Below, one piece after another: positions 3,357 through 30,143 of a DNA stretch of 64,000 nt; position 1 is the first letter of the stretch; each line of letters starts with the position of its first letter. Origin of the DNA: a virus; IMG/VR virus record IMGVR_UViG_3300042905_004067. One strand, 5' to 3'. The notes under the pieces are model-generated. The model worked only from the letters and a program-made list of their open reading frames with translations, searched no databases and was not told the DNA's origin. A program made the translations under genes and the position numbers.

Positions 3357-3757
3357 CTGGTAACTCTTGGAGAAGAATCAAATCTTCCTTCAATCAAACG
3401 AACTACACTTCCACCAGTTATGCTAGAAAGTTGAAGATCATAAACAAATTTACCAATAGGCATATTTGCCATTCCAGATCCTTTTACTTCCAACAAAACA
3501 CCACCAGTATAACCAGTAGCACCAGCCAATGAACAGTTCAAAGTTATTCCACCATAACTTCCTGTAAGTCCTACCGTTGCACCAAATGGTGAAGAGGTAA
3601 ACACTGCAAGAACACCATCCATTTCATATGAACGACGAACTTGCATTTTTGCGGTTTGGTTTGAAAGATCTACAGCGGTTCCGTTTTCTTCCAAATAACG
3701 AATATGGAGATTAAAGTCTGAACCCTGTTCGGCTGATATATCGTAATTGGCAGACAT
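3353..3757 (-). CDS. Putative virion adaptor protein (BppU-N-like beta-sandwich)
   Basis: YDISAEQGSDF...VDLS..TAKMQVR...YDLQL...RLIEG pattern typical of phage structural adaptor proteins; AGGAG SD; late motif upstream. Confidence 0.6.
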   Translation of the reverse strand: MSANYDISAEQGSDFNLHIRYLEENGTAVDLSNQTAKMQVRRSYEMDGVLAVFTSSPFGATVGLTGSYGGITLNCSLAGATGYTGGVLLEVKGSGMANMPIGKFVYDLQLSSITGGSVVRLIEGRFDSSPRVTR

Positions 3758-3777
3758 AGATTAGCTCCTAACTAATC

Positions 3778-3785
3778 TATTTATC
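3778..3785 (-). promoter_or_regulatory. Late promoter-like motif (GATAAATA)
   Basis: Upstream of the 3353..3757 start and SD. Confidence 0.55.
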
Positions 3786-4991
3786 TCATCTACTAACTCG
3801 TTCTTTTTTCTTTTTTGGGGTTACTTTTTTTTGTTCGTTTTTTTCTATTCGTTTTTCTACTTGTTTTTCAACAATCTGGGAACGCAATTGAATTATTATT
3901 TTTTCATATTCCGCCAAATTGGTTTTAACTCTTTCCAACTCTGCATCAGGAATAAGTTTTCTGTCGATAAGTGCTTTACACGCATTATAACCAACCTCAA
4001 CCTTACCCGCATAGTAGGCTGTGCTGCCAATTTCATCTAAAATACCATAACGATACACATCATTATCAATGAATAAAATGTCATCTTTTGGATATGGTAT
4101 CTCTGCTGCCATTTTTGCAAAAGTGTATCCAAGGGCAGGCTTTCCTTGAATTCTGTATACTCTTGCAATTTGATATAATGGTTCTGCTCTTGATGGTCTT
4201 GCGTTATATGCATCCAAGAATGCTTGTTGTATTTCAACCCAAGGTTTATTCTGCATAGCCCTGCATATTCCTATTCTATAAATTGAATAGTATATTTCTT
4301 CAGGCCAACCACCCATTTCAATTCTCTTGACATATGCTGCTTCTGCCTTTTCCCATTGTTGAGAATCGAAGTAACTTTGTGCCAAATAAAATTGATAACG
4401 AACGTTTTGTGGTTCATCAATCAATGCTTTTTCTAAAAGTTCAGCATCTTTTTTGTACTTTTCTACTGGTTCAATATCTTTATTTCTAGCACCTAAAGTT
4501 CGTGCAACAACTCTATAGTTTCCTTCAAGACGTTGAATATTTGGAATTCTCCCATCTTCAACAGTTGGATATTCGTGTAGAACTCCAACATATCTCCAGT
4601 TATCATTTGCTTTAAATATTTGAGTTCTCCACCAAGAGAAATCCATTCTACCCATTAAAACTGCATAACCATCAGCATCCTTAATTTGATCTCTTGGTAG
4701 TTTTCCCTCAACAAAGTCATCAGCGTCAATCATGAAAATATAATCTGTTTTTCCGTTGCAGAGTTCAAGTGCTTCGGTTCTGTTGTGTCCGAAAGAAACC
4801 CACGGGCGTTCATGTAGTTCGCCTGGTATTCCTTTTTCTGCAAAATAGGTTTTAATTAATTCTTGAGTTCCATCTGTTGAACCAGTGTCAACAATCACCC
4901 AATAATCAATTTGATCATAAATGGTATCAAAGCACTCTTTGATAATATGCGATTCATTCTTTACGATCATCGACAGACATAATTTATTCAT
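3786..4991 (-). CDS. GT2 glycosyltransferase with C-terminal TPR-like repeats (candidate protein glycosyltransferase)
   Basis: LSMIVKNE...VDTGSTDGT...F..NR...IDAD...GVLHE GT2 motifs; helical repeats RYQFYLAQSYFD and RAEPLYQIA. Confidence 0.85.
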   Translation of the reverse strand: MNKLCLSMIVKNESHIIKECFDTIYDQIDYWVIVDTGSTDGTQELIKTYFAEKGIPGELHERPWVSFGHNRTEALELCNGKTDYIFMIDADDFVEGKLPRDQIKDADGYAVLMGRMDFSWWRTQIFKANDNWRYVGVLHEYPTVEDGRIPNIQRLEGNYRVVARTLGARNKDIEPVEKYKKDAELLEKALIDEPQNVRYQFYLAQSYFDSQQWEKAEAAYVKRIEMGGWPEEIYYSIYRIGICRAMQNKPWVEIQQAFLDAYNARPSRAEPLYQIARVYRIQGKPALGYTFAKMAAEIPYPKDDILFIDNDVYRYGILDEIGSTAYYAGKVEVGYNACKALIDRKLIPDAELERVKTNLAEYEKIIIQLRSQIVEKQVEKRIEKNEQKKVTPKKKKERVSR

Positions 4992-24634: not shown

Positions 24635-24957
24635 TAAATATTTACCCATTGCTCACTATTGCCATCGGTTATGTACTTATAAAGTTTTCCTGTTGTTGTA
24701 TCAAACCATTCATCTCCAATGTTTACTTGTAATGGAATTTTTTCGCCCCAATAAAACTGAATTGGGTTTGAACCACCACTTACAAGGCTCCAGCCACCAC
24801 GTTCGCCGTGAGCCGGTGATGTTTCTGTTATGGTTCTATTTGCAATATAAGTTTTGCCTTTATAAAGAACGACATCATTTTTCTGATATGTTATAACCAT
24901 ACCATTAGAATCAGTTGCCCTATATGTGCCTTTAAGATTTAAATTATCGAATGTCAT
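24631..24957 (-). CDS. Small protein with CBM5/12-like carbohydrate-binding motif
   Basis: YQKNDVVLYKGKTYIA...P...W plus GDEWFDTTTGKLYKY...QWV. Confidence 0.55.
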   Translation of the reverse strand: MTFDNLNLKGTYRATDSNGMVITYQKNDVVLYKGKTYIANRTITETSPAHGERGGWSLVSGGSNPIQFYWGEKIPLQVNIGDEWFDTTTGKLYKYITDGNSEQWVNIY

Positions 24958-26081
24958 TTAATTGACCTAAGAATAAGAGTATGTGAATTAATTCTTCCCT
25001 TTGGAGTCGTTTCTTTGGTCTTTATGCTGCTCCAAAGATTATTTATAGCACGAACCCCATCTTTCTTAATAGACTTAATAAATTCATTTGGCTTTCTTAT
25101 TGTTTTCTCTTTTGATTGAACAATATCAAAACCAATAATTGATGATCCTTTTACAGTAATTCCACCATTAGAAGGATCAGTAATAAACATTGAAGCCTTT
25201 TTGGTTTTAACATTATAGGTATAAACAGTAGAAGCACCAATAATTTGTTCTGGAGAAATAGACTCGGCGCCAGTACTTGTATCCTTAACAAGATACTTAA
25301 GTTTTTTGACAATTTGTTCTGGCTTTTTCTTCTTCTTCTTTCTTGGTTTCCTATTCGTCTTCAAAATAGATTGACGCAACTTTAAGTAATCACAAATCAT
25401 CTTATTGAAGTCATAGAACTTTCTTAGTTTTGCTTTGGTAAAATAACTATACCCCTCCATGAGATCTTTATTTTCTCCAAGAAGGCAAAGCCTAAGTTCT
25501 TCTGTTCGTGATTCGAATGTTTGTAGCATAAATTCACAGTGCATTCCACTCGGCTGAACAGATGTAAGCCAATCTTCAATACTGAACTGTTTATAGTTTG
25601 GAACATTTCCACGAAGATATTCCATATACTCATCAATTGCTTCTTCAAGTTCTGATGCTAGTTCACAAGATTGATTTCTAACACGATCACGAACTGAGAT
25701 GGTTTCTTCTGGTTTTTCATCTACTGAGAGAAGTTTGCCGCGCTCAATTAAAGACCTAATTGCATCATCAACTTTTTGCTGAAACATTGGAGGAAGAACA
25801 CAGCCTTTATTTGCTGCTTGGCATTTACCGCCAATCATTCGAAACTCAAATGCATCAGTTCCGGCCTTTTTAATAAACTCCCTATCCTTGATCTTCAGCC
25901 GATCAGCATATTCACAAACTGCTTGCCTATAATCTCTGTCACTATAGCGAACATTATACCAATTTGCTGCAAGAGCAATAGACCATGCTACCTTTTCGAT
26001 ATCATCAAAGTCTTCTTTGGTCCAATTCTTCCAGTTCGGTTCTTTTCCGTAAAAAATGTCTTCGACGTTTTGCTTTATCAT
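24954..26081 (-). CDS. Hypothetical protein of a type recurrent in T4-like phages
   Basis: RKPRKKK...KLKY...SISP.QIIGA...YNVKT...KTIRKP; start moved to MIKQN (ATGA overlap). Confidence 0.7.
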   Translation of the reverse strand: MIKQNVEDIFYGKEPNWKNWTKEDFDDIEKVAWSIALAANWYNVRYSDRDYRQAVCEYADRLKIKDREFIKKAGTDAFEFRMIGGKCQAANKGCVLPPMFQQKVDDAIRSLIERGKLLSVDEKPEETISVRDRVRNQSCELASELEEAIDEYMEYLRGNVPNYKQFSIEDWLTSVQPSGMHCEFMLQTFESRTEELRLCLLGENKDLMEGYSYFTKAKLRKFYDFNKMICDYLKLRQSILKTNRKPRKKKKKKPEQIVKKLKYLVKDTSTGAESISPEQIIGASTVYTYNVKTKKASMFITDPSNGGITVKGSSIIGFDIVQSKEKTIRKPNEFIKSIKKDGVRAINNLWSSIKTKETTPKGRINSHTLILRSIK

Positions 26082-27655
26082 GGTTTGTAGAATATAAAGA
26101 TCGGTTCGTATTTTACATAAGTACCGTCTACTTTGCAATAGTTTTTACACTTTGGAACACCATTTTCATCCAAACGATTCTGCCCAGGCATAGATTCTAG
26201 AGCCATTTTTAATACGCCCTTATATTCCATACCTAAACTCTCAAGAATAGTTTTTGAATCTTTTTCTAAAGGCAAATACTCATCTGCGATTAATAAATCT
26301 GCAATATTCCATAATAGATATCTGTCATTTTTTAAATACTCAACACAAGTTTCTAAAGTTGGCTTTAAGAAACCATCTCTCCACGATTCATATGTACTAA
26401 ACTTTTTGTAAGACTGCTCTGGATCTTCTGAATATGCCTCTCTATTAAAATAAGGAGGTGAGGTAAAAACCAAATCCAATTTACCCTTGTATTTTTGAAA
26501 ACTTGGATTGTGTTGTATTACTTCTGATCCTTCACAGAAAACTTCATATGTGTTTGTGTGGCTGAAGAATGGATTATTTCTGTACGTTTTCTTGTTAAAA
26601 AAGTCAGCCAATTTACTATATCTTGACCCCTCCGATAAATGATTATCGGTGTTAGGATCAGTACCAATATAGTGCAAAACACGATCATCCCTAACAGCCA
26701 TAGCACCCAAAATCCTACCTCCCCAACCACTCGAAGGATCATAAATGTGTAACGTTTCATTTGTTTTGACATGATTTGTAAATCTTTCATAAAGATACTT
26801 TGCGGTTAATGGAGGGAAGTTAACTGCGACTTGAATATAGCCAATACGAAATGAGGCAAATCCAGCAGGAAAAACTTTTTCTCCTTTTTTGTAAATACGA
26901 ATTGAATACACTCTGTCGTCTTTTAAATTTTCCGAATCAAATGTGGAATAGTGCCTATATGACATTTTTGGTTTCCATGTTTGAAACTGATCTTTTGTGA
27001 TCTGTAATATGTCACTCTGTTGTATTTGAAAATAACCACTATTCAATCCTTCACGGACTTTAACTTCCTCCAGCATAAAATCATATCCTTCAAAGATTGA
27101 AGGATTGCTAAAGAATGCATCCAACCACTCTTCACCAGTTTCAACATCTACAATTGCATATTTGGTGCTATGCTTTATGGCAGATAGTGCATGGCGATAA
27201 AAAGAGTCGCGGCGAAGATGCCGCATAGCACCACGGACAACACGATCTTGTAAAGTGTCATCCGCGAACAAGTCATAAATTGAATATCCATTATCTTTCT
27301 CCGTATAGTTAATTCTAGTTTTCATCATATTTGAAAACCATTGATCCGCCTCTCCACCAATTCTTGCTTTATTGATGATAACATCATCTATAGTTCCATC
27401 AGAATTCAATTGATCGGTGTGCGTAAACTGATTAACAGGATAATTAGTCATCTTGTTAAATTGATCAATTATATCTGATTCATTTTTACCAGTTCGTGGT
27501 GGGCAGCCATAAGTATCCCATGAATGTAATATTTCCTTACGCATGTCTTTAACCCAATCAGTAAACTCTGTTGGTGTCATGCTAAGTAATTCTTCAAAGA
27601 GCACATTTACTTTTGAATTAATTACATATTCATTTCGTTCATAAAACTCGTTCAT
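26078..27655 (-). CDS. DNA amino-methyltransferase (m4C/m6A) with long N-terminal region
   Basis: Motif I YDPSSGWGGR followed by motif IV FTSPPY; start moved to MNEFY (ATGA overlap). Confidence 0.8.
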   Translation of the reverse strand: MNEFYERNEYVINSKVNVLFEELLSMTPTEFTDWVKDMRKEILHSWDTYGCPPRTGKNESDIIDQFNKMTNYPVNQFTHTDQLNSDGTIDDVIINKARIGGEADQWFSNMMKTRINYTEKDNGYSIYDLFADDTLQDRVVRGAMRHLRRDSFYRHALSAIKHSTKYAIVDVETGEEWLDAFFSNPSIFEGYDFMLEEVKVREGLNSGYFQIQQSDILQITKDQFQTWKPKMSYRHYSTFDSENLKDDRVYSIRIYKKGEKVFPAGFASFRIGYIQVAVNFPPLTAKYLYERFTNHVKTNETLHIYDPSSGWGGRILGAMAVRDDRVLHYIGTDPNTDNHLSEGSRYSKLADFFNKKTYRNNPFFSHTNTYEVFCEGSEVIQHNPSFQKYKGKLDLVFTSPPYFNREAYSEDPEQSYKKFSTYESWRDGFLKPTLETCVEYLKNDRYLLWNIADLLIADEYLPLEKDSKTILESLGMEYKGVLKMALESMPGQNRLDENGVPKCKNYCKVDGTYVKYEPIFIFYKP

Positions 27656-28425
27656 GCGCCCACATTCCAAAACAGTGTAGTTTTATTTAAATTTGTGTTT
27701 TTATGTTTCATTATAAATTCCCATGCCTTTGCATCATATGTTGGTGCAGATGGAAATGGTGGTAAAATGTTTGTTGGTTTATTAAATGGTATATTGCAAT
27801 TATAAACCTTTGCTCTACCGTAGTTTCCTTTATGCCCAACACTTACCACATTAAAGTTTGCAGTTGGCCACGCAAGTTGTAGTCCTCTGGTTAGAGTCCC
27901 GCTAGATCCAACACTCCAAACTTCATCTGGAATCATGCCAATATTATAACGAGCAACTTTAACAATACAAGCCAAAACGTCAACATGATCTCCACCAATA
28001 GGAATTAAAACTCTATTAATAGGATCTTCTTTCACATAATCTTTTGCTCTTTTTTCTGTAACACTCAGCATTCCATTAGGAACCCACCGCATATCGGCAC
28101 CAGAAGCAATTGCTTCCTGTTGATAAGGATGTAATTTATTCATATCTCGTTGAGCCATAAAAATTACTGCCTTTTTTCCATATCTTGCGGCTGCTTTTGC
28201 AAAACTAATTTGTGCATAACCAGTTGCAGGGGAACTACCATAAACGAATTCTTTGTATGGCCAAGTTTTTATCATATAATCAATAAAACGCAGTTTGGAA
28301 CCACCCCCTAGAAGATCATCACGCACAACAAAAATATTATTGTGTTCAGTAATAATAGGAAGTGGGTTTGGATCTTCCCATTCTTCTACAATTTTTAAAA
28401 AATCTTCTGGTGTTGATAATATCAT
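27652..28425 (-). CDS. Fold-type II PLP-dependent enzyme (PALP-like)
   Basis: VVRDDLL.GGSKLR (Schiff-base Lys), SVGSSGTL phosphate loop, YDAKAW. Confidence 0.75.
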   Translation of the reverse strand: MILSTPEDFLKIVEEWEDPNPLPIITEHNNIFVVRDDLLGGGSKLRFIDYMIKTWPYKEFVYGSSPATGYAQISFAKAAARYGKKAVIFMAQRDMNKLHPYQQEAIASGADMRWVPNGMLSVTEKRAKDYVKEDPINRVLIPIGGDHVDVLACIVKVARYNIGMIPDEVWSVGSSGTLTRGLQLAWPTANFNVVSVGHKGNYGRAKVYNCNIPFNKPTNILPPFPSAPTYDAKAWEFIMKHKNTNLNKTTLFWNVGA

Positions 28426-30143
28426 ACAAAGTTAAGTTTACTAAAATTTTTCTTCTTTTCAAGAGTAATAATAGTAGAGAACTTATCTGCCAAAGAATCT
28501 GCTCTATGTGAAATTACAAATATATTTGTTTTTGAATCAAGACCAGTCAATAGTTTCATAAATTCTTCTGCGCCAACAGAATCAAGAGAAGAATCAAATA
28601 CTTCATCTAGAATAAGCAAATTACAATTTGCACTATTCTTTACACGCGCTACTTCACGCCATGCCAATAGCAGAGACAAATCAATACGCATTTTTTCACC
28701 TTCGCTAAAACTCATGTAACTAAATGTGTCTCGGTTTCTGCTTTTAATAGTTTCGTTAAACTCTTCATCTAAATTAAATTGGGCAAAGAAATCCATAGCA
28801 GTTAAGAATTTATTCACCGTCTTGTTGATAATTGGTAAATAGTTTTTAATTATTTTTCCTTTAATACCAGAATCGCGTAATAAAATAGAACCAATTTCCA
28901 TACAACGAAGATTCTCTTGTAATTTAATTCGTTCTTCTTTAATTTTTTCTATTTTGTTTTCAAGTTGTTCTAAATCTTTTGTTTCCGCATCAATTTCAAT
29001 ATTATCACCGGAAGACTGCTCTAGTTCTTTAGTTAAAGACTTTAAATTACTCATTAAATTATCATGAGAGATATTTAATTGGGCAATAGAAAGTTTATAA
29101 TCTCCAATTTCATTTTGAATTTTTTCAAAAATTTCTAACTGGTTTTCGGATTCCGTTAATTTATTTTCAATTTCATTAACTGCTTTTGTGTATTCTTCAA
29201 TTTTTGTTGTCTTAGAACTAGTTTGTTCTTTCTTAAACTCATCAGTAATTTTTTGTTTACACACAGGACAATTATCATTGTCATGATAAAATTCAATTTC
29301 TTTATTGCAATTATCATGATTTTGTTGAATTTGAGTTTTAAGTTTTTCTAAAGTCTTTATTGAGTTTTCTATTTTAACTTTTGCCTTAATATCAAAAGAA
29401 ATAGAAGACAGTTTTAATTCTTGTTCTTTCTTTTTAACAACTATTGTTTCTATTGAAGAATTTAGTTCCTTTATTTTTTCTTTAATTTTGTCTTGTGATT
29501 CATTGCTTCTGTTCTTTAGACTTTGAATGAACTTTTTCTTTAGTTGTAATTTTTCGCTCTGAAGATTTAATTCTGAATCACAACCCTGCAAAATTGCCTT
29601 AGTTTCTGTTATTCTAGATTTCAACAAACTATTCATTGTTGTAAAAACATTAATATCAAGAATATCTTCAATTACTGCTCTCCTGTCAGCAGCAGGAAGT
29701 TGCATGAATGGAACAAAAGAAGAACTTCCAAGTATTACTACTTGTGTAAATGACTTGTAATTCATTCGAATGATCTGTTCTTCAAAGTATTGTTGATAAT
29801 CTTTATTTTTGGCGTCTTGATTCAACAAATCGCCATTTTTAAATATTTCAAAAATTTTTGGAGAAAGACCTCGACGGATCAGATATTTATCTGACCCTAT
29901 TTCAAAATCCAATTCAACCAAACAATCTTTTTTGTTAATGGTATTGACTAGTTGTGGTATGTTTATTTTTCTAAATGGTTTACCAAACAAAGCAAAGGTT
30001 ATAGAATCCAAAAAGGCAAATGATTTACCATTTCCGTTAGAACCAGATACTAATGTATTTTTTCTAGAATCTAAATGAAGTTCAGTAAATGTGTTCCCAA
30101 ATGATCCAAAATTTTTAAAACGAATCTTTTTGAATATGATCAT
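28422..30143 (-). CDS. 46: Recombination endonuclease subunit gp46 (SbcC/Rad50-like)
   Basis: GSNGNGKS, CPVC hook, FSEGEK, LDEVFD. Confidence 0.97.
   Translation of the reverse strand: MIIFKKIRFKNFGSFGNTFTELHLDSRKNTLVSGSNGNGKSFAFLDSITFALFGKPFRKINIPQLVNTINKKDCLVELDFEIGSDKYLIRRGLSPKIFEIFKNGDLLNQDAKNKDYQQYFEEQIIRMNYKSFTQVVILGSSSFVPFMQLPAADRRAVIEDILDINVFTTMNSLLKSRITETKAILQGCDSELNLQSEKLQLKKKFIQSLKNRSNESQDKIKEKIKELNSSIETIVVKKKEQELKLSSISFDIKAKVKIENSIKTLEKLKTQIQQNHDNCNKEIEFYHDNDNCPVCKQKITDEFKKEQTSSKTTKIEEYTKAVNEIENKLTESENQLEIFEKIQNEIGDYKLSIAQLNISHDNLMSNLKSLTKELEQSSGDNIEIDAETKDLEQLENKIEKIKEERIKLQENLRCMEIGSILLRDSGIKGKIIKNYLPIINKTVNKFLTAMDFFAQFNLDEEFNETIKSRNRDTFSYMSFSEGEKMRIDLSLLLAWREVARVKNSANCNLLILDEVFDSSLDSVGAEEFMKLLTGLDSKTNIFVISHRADSLADKFSTIITLEKKKNFSKLNFV

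Follow-up and report, generated by a model that had tools for sequence, protein, structure and literature searches.

Do two adjacent genes of an uncultured T4-like myovirus encode a module for the hypermodification of DNA, and if so, by which chemistry would such a module act? The genes lie in a 64,000-nucleotide stretch (IMG/VR virus record IMGVR_UViG_3300042905_004067; hereafter, the window), the source of which is a virus with 30–35% G+C and nearly all of its genes on the minus strand; they encode both an enzyme of 257 amino acids (aa) dependent on pyridoxal 5′-phosphate (PLP) and a methyltransferase-like protein of 525 aa (MT). A preliminary description of this locus had proposed that the coupled pair installs or processes an unusual base, for example by transfer of an amino-acyl group or of a group derived from S-adenosylmethionine (SAM), followed by PLP chemistry. 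The best reading of the evidence assembled here, which we favor only tentatively, is that MT puts a SAM-derived amino-acid side chain on an exocyclic nitrogen of a base and that the PLP enzyme decarboxylates this side chain to an aminopropyl group.

The PLP enzyme (positions 27652–28425, minus strand) presented a weak match to Pfam PALP (18.6 bits; cut-off 35) and a match to phrog_7093 (E = 3.2e-37) that covered profile positions 15–279 of 279. The preliminary description had likened it to the PLP-dependent decarboxylases of thymidine hypermodification, and profile comparison does place it in the same family as gp52 of Pseudomonas phage M6, which also belongs to phrog_7093 (E = 2.2e-159); the two proteins aligned over their full length by BLASTP (27% identity; E = 1e-9) and by hhalign (probability 97.8%; E = 1.2e-12). 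The predicted Schiff-base lysine, K44 (positions 28296–28294, minus strand; in GGSKLR), aligns to K36 of gp52, and an SSGT phosphate loop and a C-terminal tail (PFPxxPxYDxKAW...FWNxG) are common to both enzymes; among relatives of the window enzyme, K44, the SSGT loop (21 aligned for these two), and the tail (PFPxxPxYDAKAW...FWNVG) are invariant. Judged by these alignments, the PLP enzyme is a true full-length homologue of a DNA-acting decarboxylase. Purified M6 gp52 and ViI gp226 catalyze the decarboxylation of DNA thymines modified with glycine or serine (Lee et al. 2021, PMC8989533), and gp226 was modelled in that study on template 1j0a, the same structure that was matched here (PMC8989533). 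In our analysis, Foldseek assigned the structure model of the PLP enzyme (predicted local distance difference test score [pLDDT] 91) to fold-type-II PLP enzymes, with 9jqf and 1j0a (TM 0.75), D-cysteine desulfhydrase, and 1-aminocyclopropane-1-carboxylate (ACC) deaminase as best matches and with cysteine synthases and threonine and serine dehydratases as further structural neighbors. The PLP enzyme shares only the fold with ACC deaminase and D-cysteine desulfhydrase, not the sequence family; it had no match in NCBIfam, including the ACC deaminase/D-cysteine desulfhydrase family TIGR01275, and it is nearer to gp52 than to either of these enzymes, because its family profile reached no solved cellular enzyme among PDB sequences at E 0.01.

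MT is a class-I amino-methyltransferase-like enzyme. Its C-terminal domain (residues 271–525 and the stop codon; positions 26078–26845, minus strand) resembles the N6_N4 amino-methyltransferases (PF01555) in its class-I fold, in a DPxxGxG-type motif I (DPSSGWGGR, residues 306–314, positions 26740–26714, minus strand), and in an SPPY loop typical of N4-cytosine enzymes (motif IV, TSPPY, residues 398–402, positions 26464–26450, minus strand); all 58 MT orthologues have TSPPY, with L142 as the sole variant that lacks motif I. Unlike those enzymes, MT presented a Pfam score barely at the threshold (N6_N4_Mtase, 27.2 bits; cut-off 26.7; residues 394–524), no match by sequence to solved methyltransferases, an extended motif (SPPYxxxExYS[DE][DN]P), relatives with CPPY in other phages, recurrent fusion to PLP domains, and a conserved N-terminus of 270 aa; it also had no match in NCBIfam. 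The structure model of MT was confident overall (pLDDT 84.5), and VIA-align found a class-I fold closest to Trm11, TrmN, Trm14, and METTL5 (Z = 13.7–14.8). The aminopropyl transferase BpsA was also among the structural matches (Z = 12.3); a nocardicin 3-amino-3-carboxypropyl (acp) transferase, 8zhv, appeared only at Foldseek rank 28, amid generic methyltransferases, and does not stand out; that VIA-align did not list such an enzyme does not speak against kinship. The target base is not readable from the sequence; SPPY favors N4 of cytosine, and the structural neighbors include N2-guanine and N6-adenine enzymes. The N-terminal region of ~270 aa noted in the preliminary description is real (residues 1–270; positions 26846–27655, minus strand), being conserved over its whole length in 24 orthologues and as conserved in these as the catalytic half; it presented no family in Pfam, PHROGs, or NCBIfam and no informative protein-atlas match, and it is possibly the part that recognizes the DNA target. 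A mechanical open reading frame (ORF) call for MT begins at TTG 27670, inside the PLP gene; ATG 27655, which gives 525 aa, is the likely start, because it overlaps the PLP stop codon and matches the N-termini (MxxFYERN) of 23 relatives.

Fusion proteins are the strongest evidence for a functional link between these two enzymes. A hidden Markov model search of 1.84 billion representatives with the PLP family retrieved 1,571 clusters (50% identity), the best-scoring 150 of which were inspected; MT-AspH-PLP and MT-PLP fusions emerged when longer homologues were searched for, and 20 of the 38 proteins of at least 340 aa among these 150 contained a methyltransferase domain with [ST][SC]PPY. One fusion protein (P0121) combines the N- and C-terminal parts of MT, an AspH domain, and the PLP domain in one chain, with 29% identity to the window over MT residues 1–524 (21% over the N-terminal region, which is retained) and 47% over the PLP domain; the smallest fusion (P0130; 545 aa) holds only methyltransferase and PLP domains. 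A second methyltransferase type among the relatives carries F[ST]CPPYxDLExYSDDP, as compared to FTSPPYFNREAYSEDP in the window. In gp7 of the cultured Erythrobacter phage ZS04 (812 aa; likewise gp1 of R6L), motif I is located at residue 341, the PLP lysine at 416–421, the PLP tail at 600, and SCPPY at 661; motifs I and IV are 69 residues apart in the unfused enzyme of Microcystis phage Mae-JY30. From this order of motifs and the Mae-JY30 spacing it follows that, in ZS04 and R6L, the PLP domain is inserted inside the methyltransferase, between motifs I and IV. Separate, adjacent genes for a CPPY methyltransferase and a PLP enzyme were found in Mae-JY30 and in eight alphaproteobacterial genome loci. 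Complex prediction for the PLP enzyme and MT of the window gave a score of 0.10 (mark 0.32), which speaks neither for nor against binding. A domain of ~130 aa was also seen fused to PLP domains (P0141, P0145, P0157, P0159, P0161, P0162, P0194, P0209, and P0144, the last in the order AspH, ~130-aa domain, PLP); the sole lead on it is a weak YunG-like protein-atlas match.

Gene linkage, as seen from the PLP side, points in the same direction. An alignment-based scan of IMG/VR identified 583 stretches that encode the PLP enzyme, and we retrieved the 80 best of these; 59 loci were informative, i.e., included at least 2.7 kb downstream of the PLP gene. An MT orthologue was located no more than 1.1 kb downstream of the PLP gene in 56 of these loci and behind an inserted ORF of ~2,100 aa in one further locus (L039), for a total of 57 of 59; the two remaining, MT-less loci are on contigs that are 7–11% complete. 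A downstream MT orthologue is thus the nearly constant partner of the PLP gene in these loci, and conservation of the pair as neighbors, which had been set beforehand as a refutation test, holds from this side. As compared to the window, gp46 and gp47 in these loci presented 45–55% identity, the PLP enzyme 53–87%, and MT 57–88%.

Several PLP loci presented other arrangements. The giant ORF between the PLP and MT genes (L039:5710–10746 and the contig beyond; also L038) had no Pfam match. In L020 (4974–5765), the PLP enzyme is 87% identical to that of the window, although gp46 of this phage has only 45% identity and the PLP gene is situated between gp47 and gp46; the 20-kb contig contains no MT. 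It seems that here the PLP gene was transferred horizontally, on its own and not long ago. A further lineage of T4-like phages has this gene next to that for DNA polymerase or UvsX (L018:1453–3451; L108:4941–7834; L110, L115, L106), where it is flanked by genes for proteins of 330–340 aa instead of MT, one of which had a weak match to a beta-glucosyltransferase PHROG (E = 1e-4); this flanking protein may be a different partner enzyme of PLP. An ORF of 113–115 aa just upstream of the PLP gene (L145:1791–2132, L180:2890–3231, L147:3002–3343, L201:3251–3598) resembles, by eye only, staphylococcal nuclease (DGDTVDL...RFYGVDAWE), and P0137 fuses a staphylococcal nuclease domain (Pfam) to PLP; this ORF or domain may be a nucleic-acid-binding helper.

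If the PLP enzyme acts on DNA, as its homologues do, which pathway supplies its substrate? The window enzyme is similar to M6 gp52 and ViI gp226 (PMC8989533) not only in family, fold type, aligned lysine, and C-terminal signature, but also in its location in a block of phage DNA-metabolism genes; it differs in that those enzymes, in addition to the low identity, depend on a deoxyuridine monophosphate hydroxymethylase, a 5-hydroxymethyldeoxyuridine (5-hmdU) DNA kinase, and an amino-acid:DNA transferase. The statement of the preliminary description that neither the kinase nor the transferase is present in the window was borne out, since tblastn with M6 gp51, gp53, gp54, and gp55 found nothing in the window at E 0.1. 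A wider search with models for the amino-acid:DNA transferase AADT (PF18724), the 5-hmdU DNA kinase (PF18748), and a ThyA-type hydroxymethylase (PF00303) gave no match in nine related phage records (32–78% complete), while the M6 control was detected with PF18724 and PF00303. A role of the PLP enzyme in the known thymidine pathway was rejected on these grounds: with the genes that feed gp52 not found in the window or the nine records, that pathway does not supply the window enzyme. Because the partner here is an amino-methyltransferase-like enzyme, the substrate base and the linkage must also differ from those in M6 and ViI.

The optional genes that often accompany the pair in other phages all act on amines, carboxylates, or amino-acid side chains. 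An AspH-like 2-oxoglutarate oxygenase is present in the cassette as a gene of its own in L094 and L104 and, elsewhere, as a domain of a fusion protein; a glutamine-synthetase-like ligase is encoded between the PLP enzyme and MT in L045, L070, and L091; and a protein of the 3′-phosphoadenosine-5′-phosphosulfate (PAPS)-reductase/PP-loop type and an ornithine-transcarbamylase (OTCase)-like gene were found in the cassettes of L104 and L094, respectively. None of these accessory genes (oxygenase, ligase, PAPS-reductase, or OTCase-like) was found in the window. The fullest cassette seen (L104:3182–9061, on a 141-kb contig binned in a bacterial metagenome-assembled genome) includes gp46, the AspH-like oxygenase, the PLP enzyme, the PAPS-reductase-domain protein, and a TSPPY MT. 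In Erythrobacter phage R6L, a PAPS-reductase gene is located a few genes from that of the fused protein.

Building on these homologies, fusions, and gene linkages, we infer what group is transferred, that it is decarboxylated, which base is the target, and which biological role the module has, as follows. The two genes would form a post-replicative base hypermodification module outside the 5-hydroxymethyl-pyrimidine route, in which MT would flip out a base and alkylate an exocyclic nitrogen (N4 of cytosine, N6 of adenine, or N2 of guanine) using SAM. In the most economical version, MT would transfer the acp group of SAM instead of the methyl group, as TYW2 does in tRNA, and its product would be a free α-amino acid tethered to DNA; the PLP enzyme would then bind the amine via K44 and release CO2 in the manner of gp52 acting on glycine-modified thymine, to leave a cationic 3-aminopropyl base. 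A hydroxylase, an amide ligase, a PP-loop enzyme, a carbamoyltransferase, or an acetyltransferase could optionally tailor the product in other phages, and phages without the PLP enzyme would stop at the amino-acid stage or acetylate it; the presumed benefit is escape from host nucleases. SAM appears as the only evident amino-acid-bearing substrate because P0130 holds only two domains and a decarboxylase needs a free α-amino acid; acp transfer followed by decarboxylation is favored because SAM is the only amino-acid-bearing molecule that such a methyltransferase domain handles.

Systems with parts of this logic have been described. The acp transferase TYW2 and the side-chain hydroxylase TYW5 act as a pair in wybutosine synthesis, which the combination of a putative acp transferase with a hydroxylase would parallel. 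TYW2/TYW5 and the SAM-dependent acp transferases of tRNA, rRNA, and nocardicin are alike to the proposed system in mechanism only, i.e., in the class-I fold and in SAM as the side-chain donor, as well as in the cupin or JmjC-type hydroxylase that follows in some relatives of the cassette; they differ in that they act on RNA or small molecules and include no PLP decarboxylation step, and no specific sequence relationship to them was detected. We know of no DNA-acting acp transferase. A second comparison is offered by the 5-carboxymethylcytosine system of Synechococcus phage S-B43 (CmoA/CmoX/CmoY), in which CmoX, a C5-cytosine methyltransferase (SPPC), depends on carboxy-SAM made by CmoA and on a dedicated Arg for this altered cofactor; its authors found no N6-adenine or N4-cytosine counterpart (PMC12783734). 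As is proposed for the pair here, a phage methyltransferase-fold enzyme puts a non-methyl, carboxyl-bearing handle on DNA that is then tailored (by amide ligases), and ParB-like domains are often nearby; the enzyme described here differs in being of the amino-methyltransferase type and in being paired with a PLP enzyme. Between them, TYW2/TYW5 (tRNA) and CmoA/CmoX/CmoY (phage DNA) provide an example of each element of the proposed logic. A literature search, which left most subscription journals outside its coverage, returned no description of a methyltransferase-PLP DNA modification module, nor of aminocarboxypropyl- or aminopropyl-DNA.

A number of observations weigh against the tentatively favored acp transfer and decarboxylation. 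From the MT side, the linkage is far looser: a reciprocal scan of IMG/VR with MT gave 582 stretches, and of the 66 informative loci (i.e., those with at least 2 kb upstream of MT), 26 presented a window-type PLP gene, five a divergent gp52-like PLP gene, and 35, about half, no PLP gene upstream. No PLP homologue was found in nine large records of PLP-less phages (24–75% complete), in which a positive control was detected. Presence of the PLP gene changed at least five to seven times on the MT tree, pairs of MT proteins with 86–98% identity differ in PLP state (one pair with a broken PLP copy), and no alignment column or residue of MT separates orthologues with PLP from those without it. Because of these repeated changes, the near-identical orthologues with and without PLP, and the lack of a separating residue, MT is self-sufficient, and the PLP enzyme follows it optionally but is hardly ever encountered where such a methyltransferase is missing. 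The junction between gp46 and MT also houses genes for peptide deformylase, GDP-mannose dehydratase, an epimerase, endonuclease VII, and Dam; given these unrelated inserts, the site behind gp46 is an insertion hotspot, and adjacency in T4-like phages counts for less as evidence than do the fusions. With regard to the enzymes themselves, motifs I and IV of MT resemble those of ordinary amino-methyltransferases, and at 27% identity the homology to gp52 is remote enough that the type of reaction could differ. As a rule, PLP enzymes of fold type II catalyze beta-elimination or beta-replacement and not decarboxylation, to which gp52 and gp226 are exceptions. The proposal of the preliminary description that the coupled pair installs or processes an unusual base is therefore upheld in part: the gp52 homology, the several fusion architectures, and the 57 of 59 PLP loci support it, and the one-sided link and the hotspot junction weaken it. 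The chemistry (a SAM-derived group, then decarboxylation) and the target base are what we infer rather than observe.

Other features of the MT loci concern what replaces or follows the window-type PLP gene. The divergent gp52-like clade (300–318 aa) occupies the same slot upstream of MT (L172:3003–3959, L181:3061–4008, L185:3069–3974, L188:3079–3990); its L185 member matched M6 gp52 at E = 9e-9, and just upstream of each member is a 220–221-aa ORF encoding a small beta-class N6_N4 methyltransferase. On the single contig represented by L088 and L178, PLP is split into pieces of 80 and 162 aa (L178:3252–3494 and 3516–4004) next to an intact MT that is 98% identical to MT of the PLP-less phage L174; this may be a loss in progress. 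A GCN5-related N-acetyltransferase (GNAT) of 143–157 aa is encoded directly upstream of MT in 16–18 PLP-less T4-like loci (e.g., L126:3556–4008, L156:3535–4008, L196:3570–4001, and ~15 further loci), with weak Pfam matches and a rimI-like assignment in NCBIfam, and P0162 combines this GNAT (residues 2–144) with a PLP domain; within the system, the GNAT may serve as an alternative enzyme for tailoring. A relationship of this GNAT to Mu Mom was considered and rejected, as no BLASTP similarity was found.

How far do other explanations account for the same data? MT could be an ordinary orphan anti-restriction methyltransferase that forms N4-methylcytosine or N6-methyladenine, with the PLP enzyme an unrelated metabolic gene that landed in the hotspot behind gp46. 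The solitary half of the MT orthologues, the many unrelated inserts at the gp46 junction, the repeated gain and loss of PLP with no change in MT, and the canonical motifs I and IV are all consistent with this explanation, as is the treatment of the fused protein of R6L (vB_EliS-R6L), annotated simply as a CcrM-like methylase (PMC5463345); we consider it unlikely, however, since it leaves unexplained the multiple independent fusions, the insertion of PLP between motifs I and IV, the adjacency in unrelated siphophages and prophage-like loci, the presence of MT at 57 of 59 PLP loci, and the specific homology to a DNA-acting decarboxylase. An explanation that keeps the link but reverses the order, with the PLP enzyme editing the cofactor first (e.g., SAM to decarboxy-SAM) and MT transferring the altered group, such as aminopropyl, holds a similarly small share of our confidence. 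Known SAM decarboxylases are, to our knowledge, pyruvoyl enzymes and not PLP-dependent, and MT orthologues that are 86–93% identical occur with and without PLP and present no discriminating residue, while CmoX needs its dedicated Arg; furthermore, the characterized PLP homologues act on DNA-bound adducts and not on free metabolites (PMC8989533). On the other hand, in CmoA/CmoX a phage enzyme that edits the cofactor is already paired with a transferase of methyltransferase fold (PMC12783734), aminopropyl transferases have the class-I fold (as in the BpsA match), and fusions would favor cofactor channelling as well.

The nature of the PLP reaction raises two further explanations. The structural neighbors (cysteine synthases, threonine and serine dehydratases, and D-cysteine desulfhydrase) would fit an enzyme that installs or remodels an adduct by beta-replacement or elimination (e.g., an alanyl group from serine or O-acetylserine, or dehydration of a hydroxylated side chain), with MT providing base flipping, targeting, and perhaps a methyl group; in plants, nucleobase-alanine conjugates are made by relatives of cysteine synthase, and an AspH-like hydroxylase fused between the two domains would yield a beta-hydroxy amino acid, which is a dehydratase substrate. 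We nevertheless regard beta-replacement or elimination as quite unlikely, because the nearest characterized relatives are decarboxylases, the window contains no hydroxylase, and the intact SAM and catalytic motifs in the methyltransferase of every fusion would go unexplained. It is very improbable that the PLP enzyme aids or exploits methylation only indirectly, by destroying inhibitory S-adenosylhomocysteine (SAH) or homocysteine or by depleting SAM against SAM-dependent host defenses; phage SAM-degrading enzymes are known counter-defenses (PMC12783734) and the PLP gene is optional for MT, but an enzyme that relies on SAM would defeat itself by harboring a domain that destroys SAM, searches with Pfam, PHROG, and NCBIfam turned up no relationship to known SAM lyases or SAH-cleaving enzymes, and the amine-tailoring neighbors are left unexplained. 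Transfer of an amino-acid side chain by MT and its decarboxylation by the PLP enzyme thus remains the reading that we favor.

The setting of the pair in the window is that of phage replication and recombination genes, in the order gp55-like, gp47, gp46, the PLP enzyme, MT, a 375-aa protein, a 108-aa protein, and RNase H. The upstream backbone gene gp46 (positions 28422–30143, minus strand; phrog_77, E = 4.5e-170) encodes an SbcC/Rad50-like recombination nuclease subunit and is translationally coupled to the PLP gene, and the 375-aa gene downstream (positions 24954–26081, minus strand) belongs to phrog_11903 (E = 2.4e-47). As stated in the preliminary description, gp46, the PLP enzyme, and the SPPY methyltransferase are chained by ATGA overlaps, which can be read in the sequence (ATG 28425–28423 over TGA 28424–28422 for gp46/PLP; ATG 27655–27653 over TGA 27654–27652 for PLP/MT), and a third overlap joins MT to the 375-aa gene (ATG 26081–26079 over TGA 26080–26078). 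No convincing promoter or terminator was found inside the chain from gp46 to the 375-aa gene; given this and the ATGA overlaps, the pair is probably expressed together with the replication and recombination genes. The 375-aa gene is part of the backbone and outside the cassette; in L020, it comes directly after gp46 without an intervening MT, and several loci that do contain MT showed no such gene downstream of it.

The pair belongs to phage DNA hypermodification, a known kind of system, and could become a new chemical class if a SAM-derived adduct is confirmed. The known entry points into phage hypermodification are 5-hydroxymethyl-pyrimidines, 7-deazaguanine, C5-methyl- and carboxymethyl-cytosine, and tRNA-dependent glycylation (Mom); an amino-methyltransferase-like enzyme and a PLP enzyme acting on the same flipped base would add a new one, probably at an exocyclic nitrogen and probably with SAM as the amino-acid donor. 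In a more far-reaching version, which we regard as possible but doubtful, MT would be the first natural amino-methyltransferase-fold enzyme that moves the aminocarboxypropyl group of SAM to a DNA base; together with the gp52-like PLP enzyme, which would form aminopropyl, and an optional hydroxylase, ligase, or acetyl- or carbamoyl-transferase, it would give rise to a family of exocyclic-nitrogen hypermodifications that occurs widely among aquatic T4-like phages and extends to cultured phages of Erythrobacter and Microcystis. Since Erythrobacter phages R6L and ZS04 and Microcystis phage Mae-JY30, in which the two are fused or adjacent, are in culture, this hypothesis can be tested directly. If it is true, the base could affect restriction escape, host-range prediction, and base-calling of aquatic viromes by nanopore or single-molecule real-time sequencing, and the enzymes could serve for site-specific placement of amines on DNA. 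The module is common, with at least 580 IMG/VR stretches for each gene and with many members of the 1,571 PLP-family clusters fused to methyltransferases; the fusions elsewhere suggest a widespread and so far undescribed route to an unusual DNA base.

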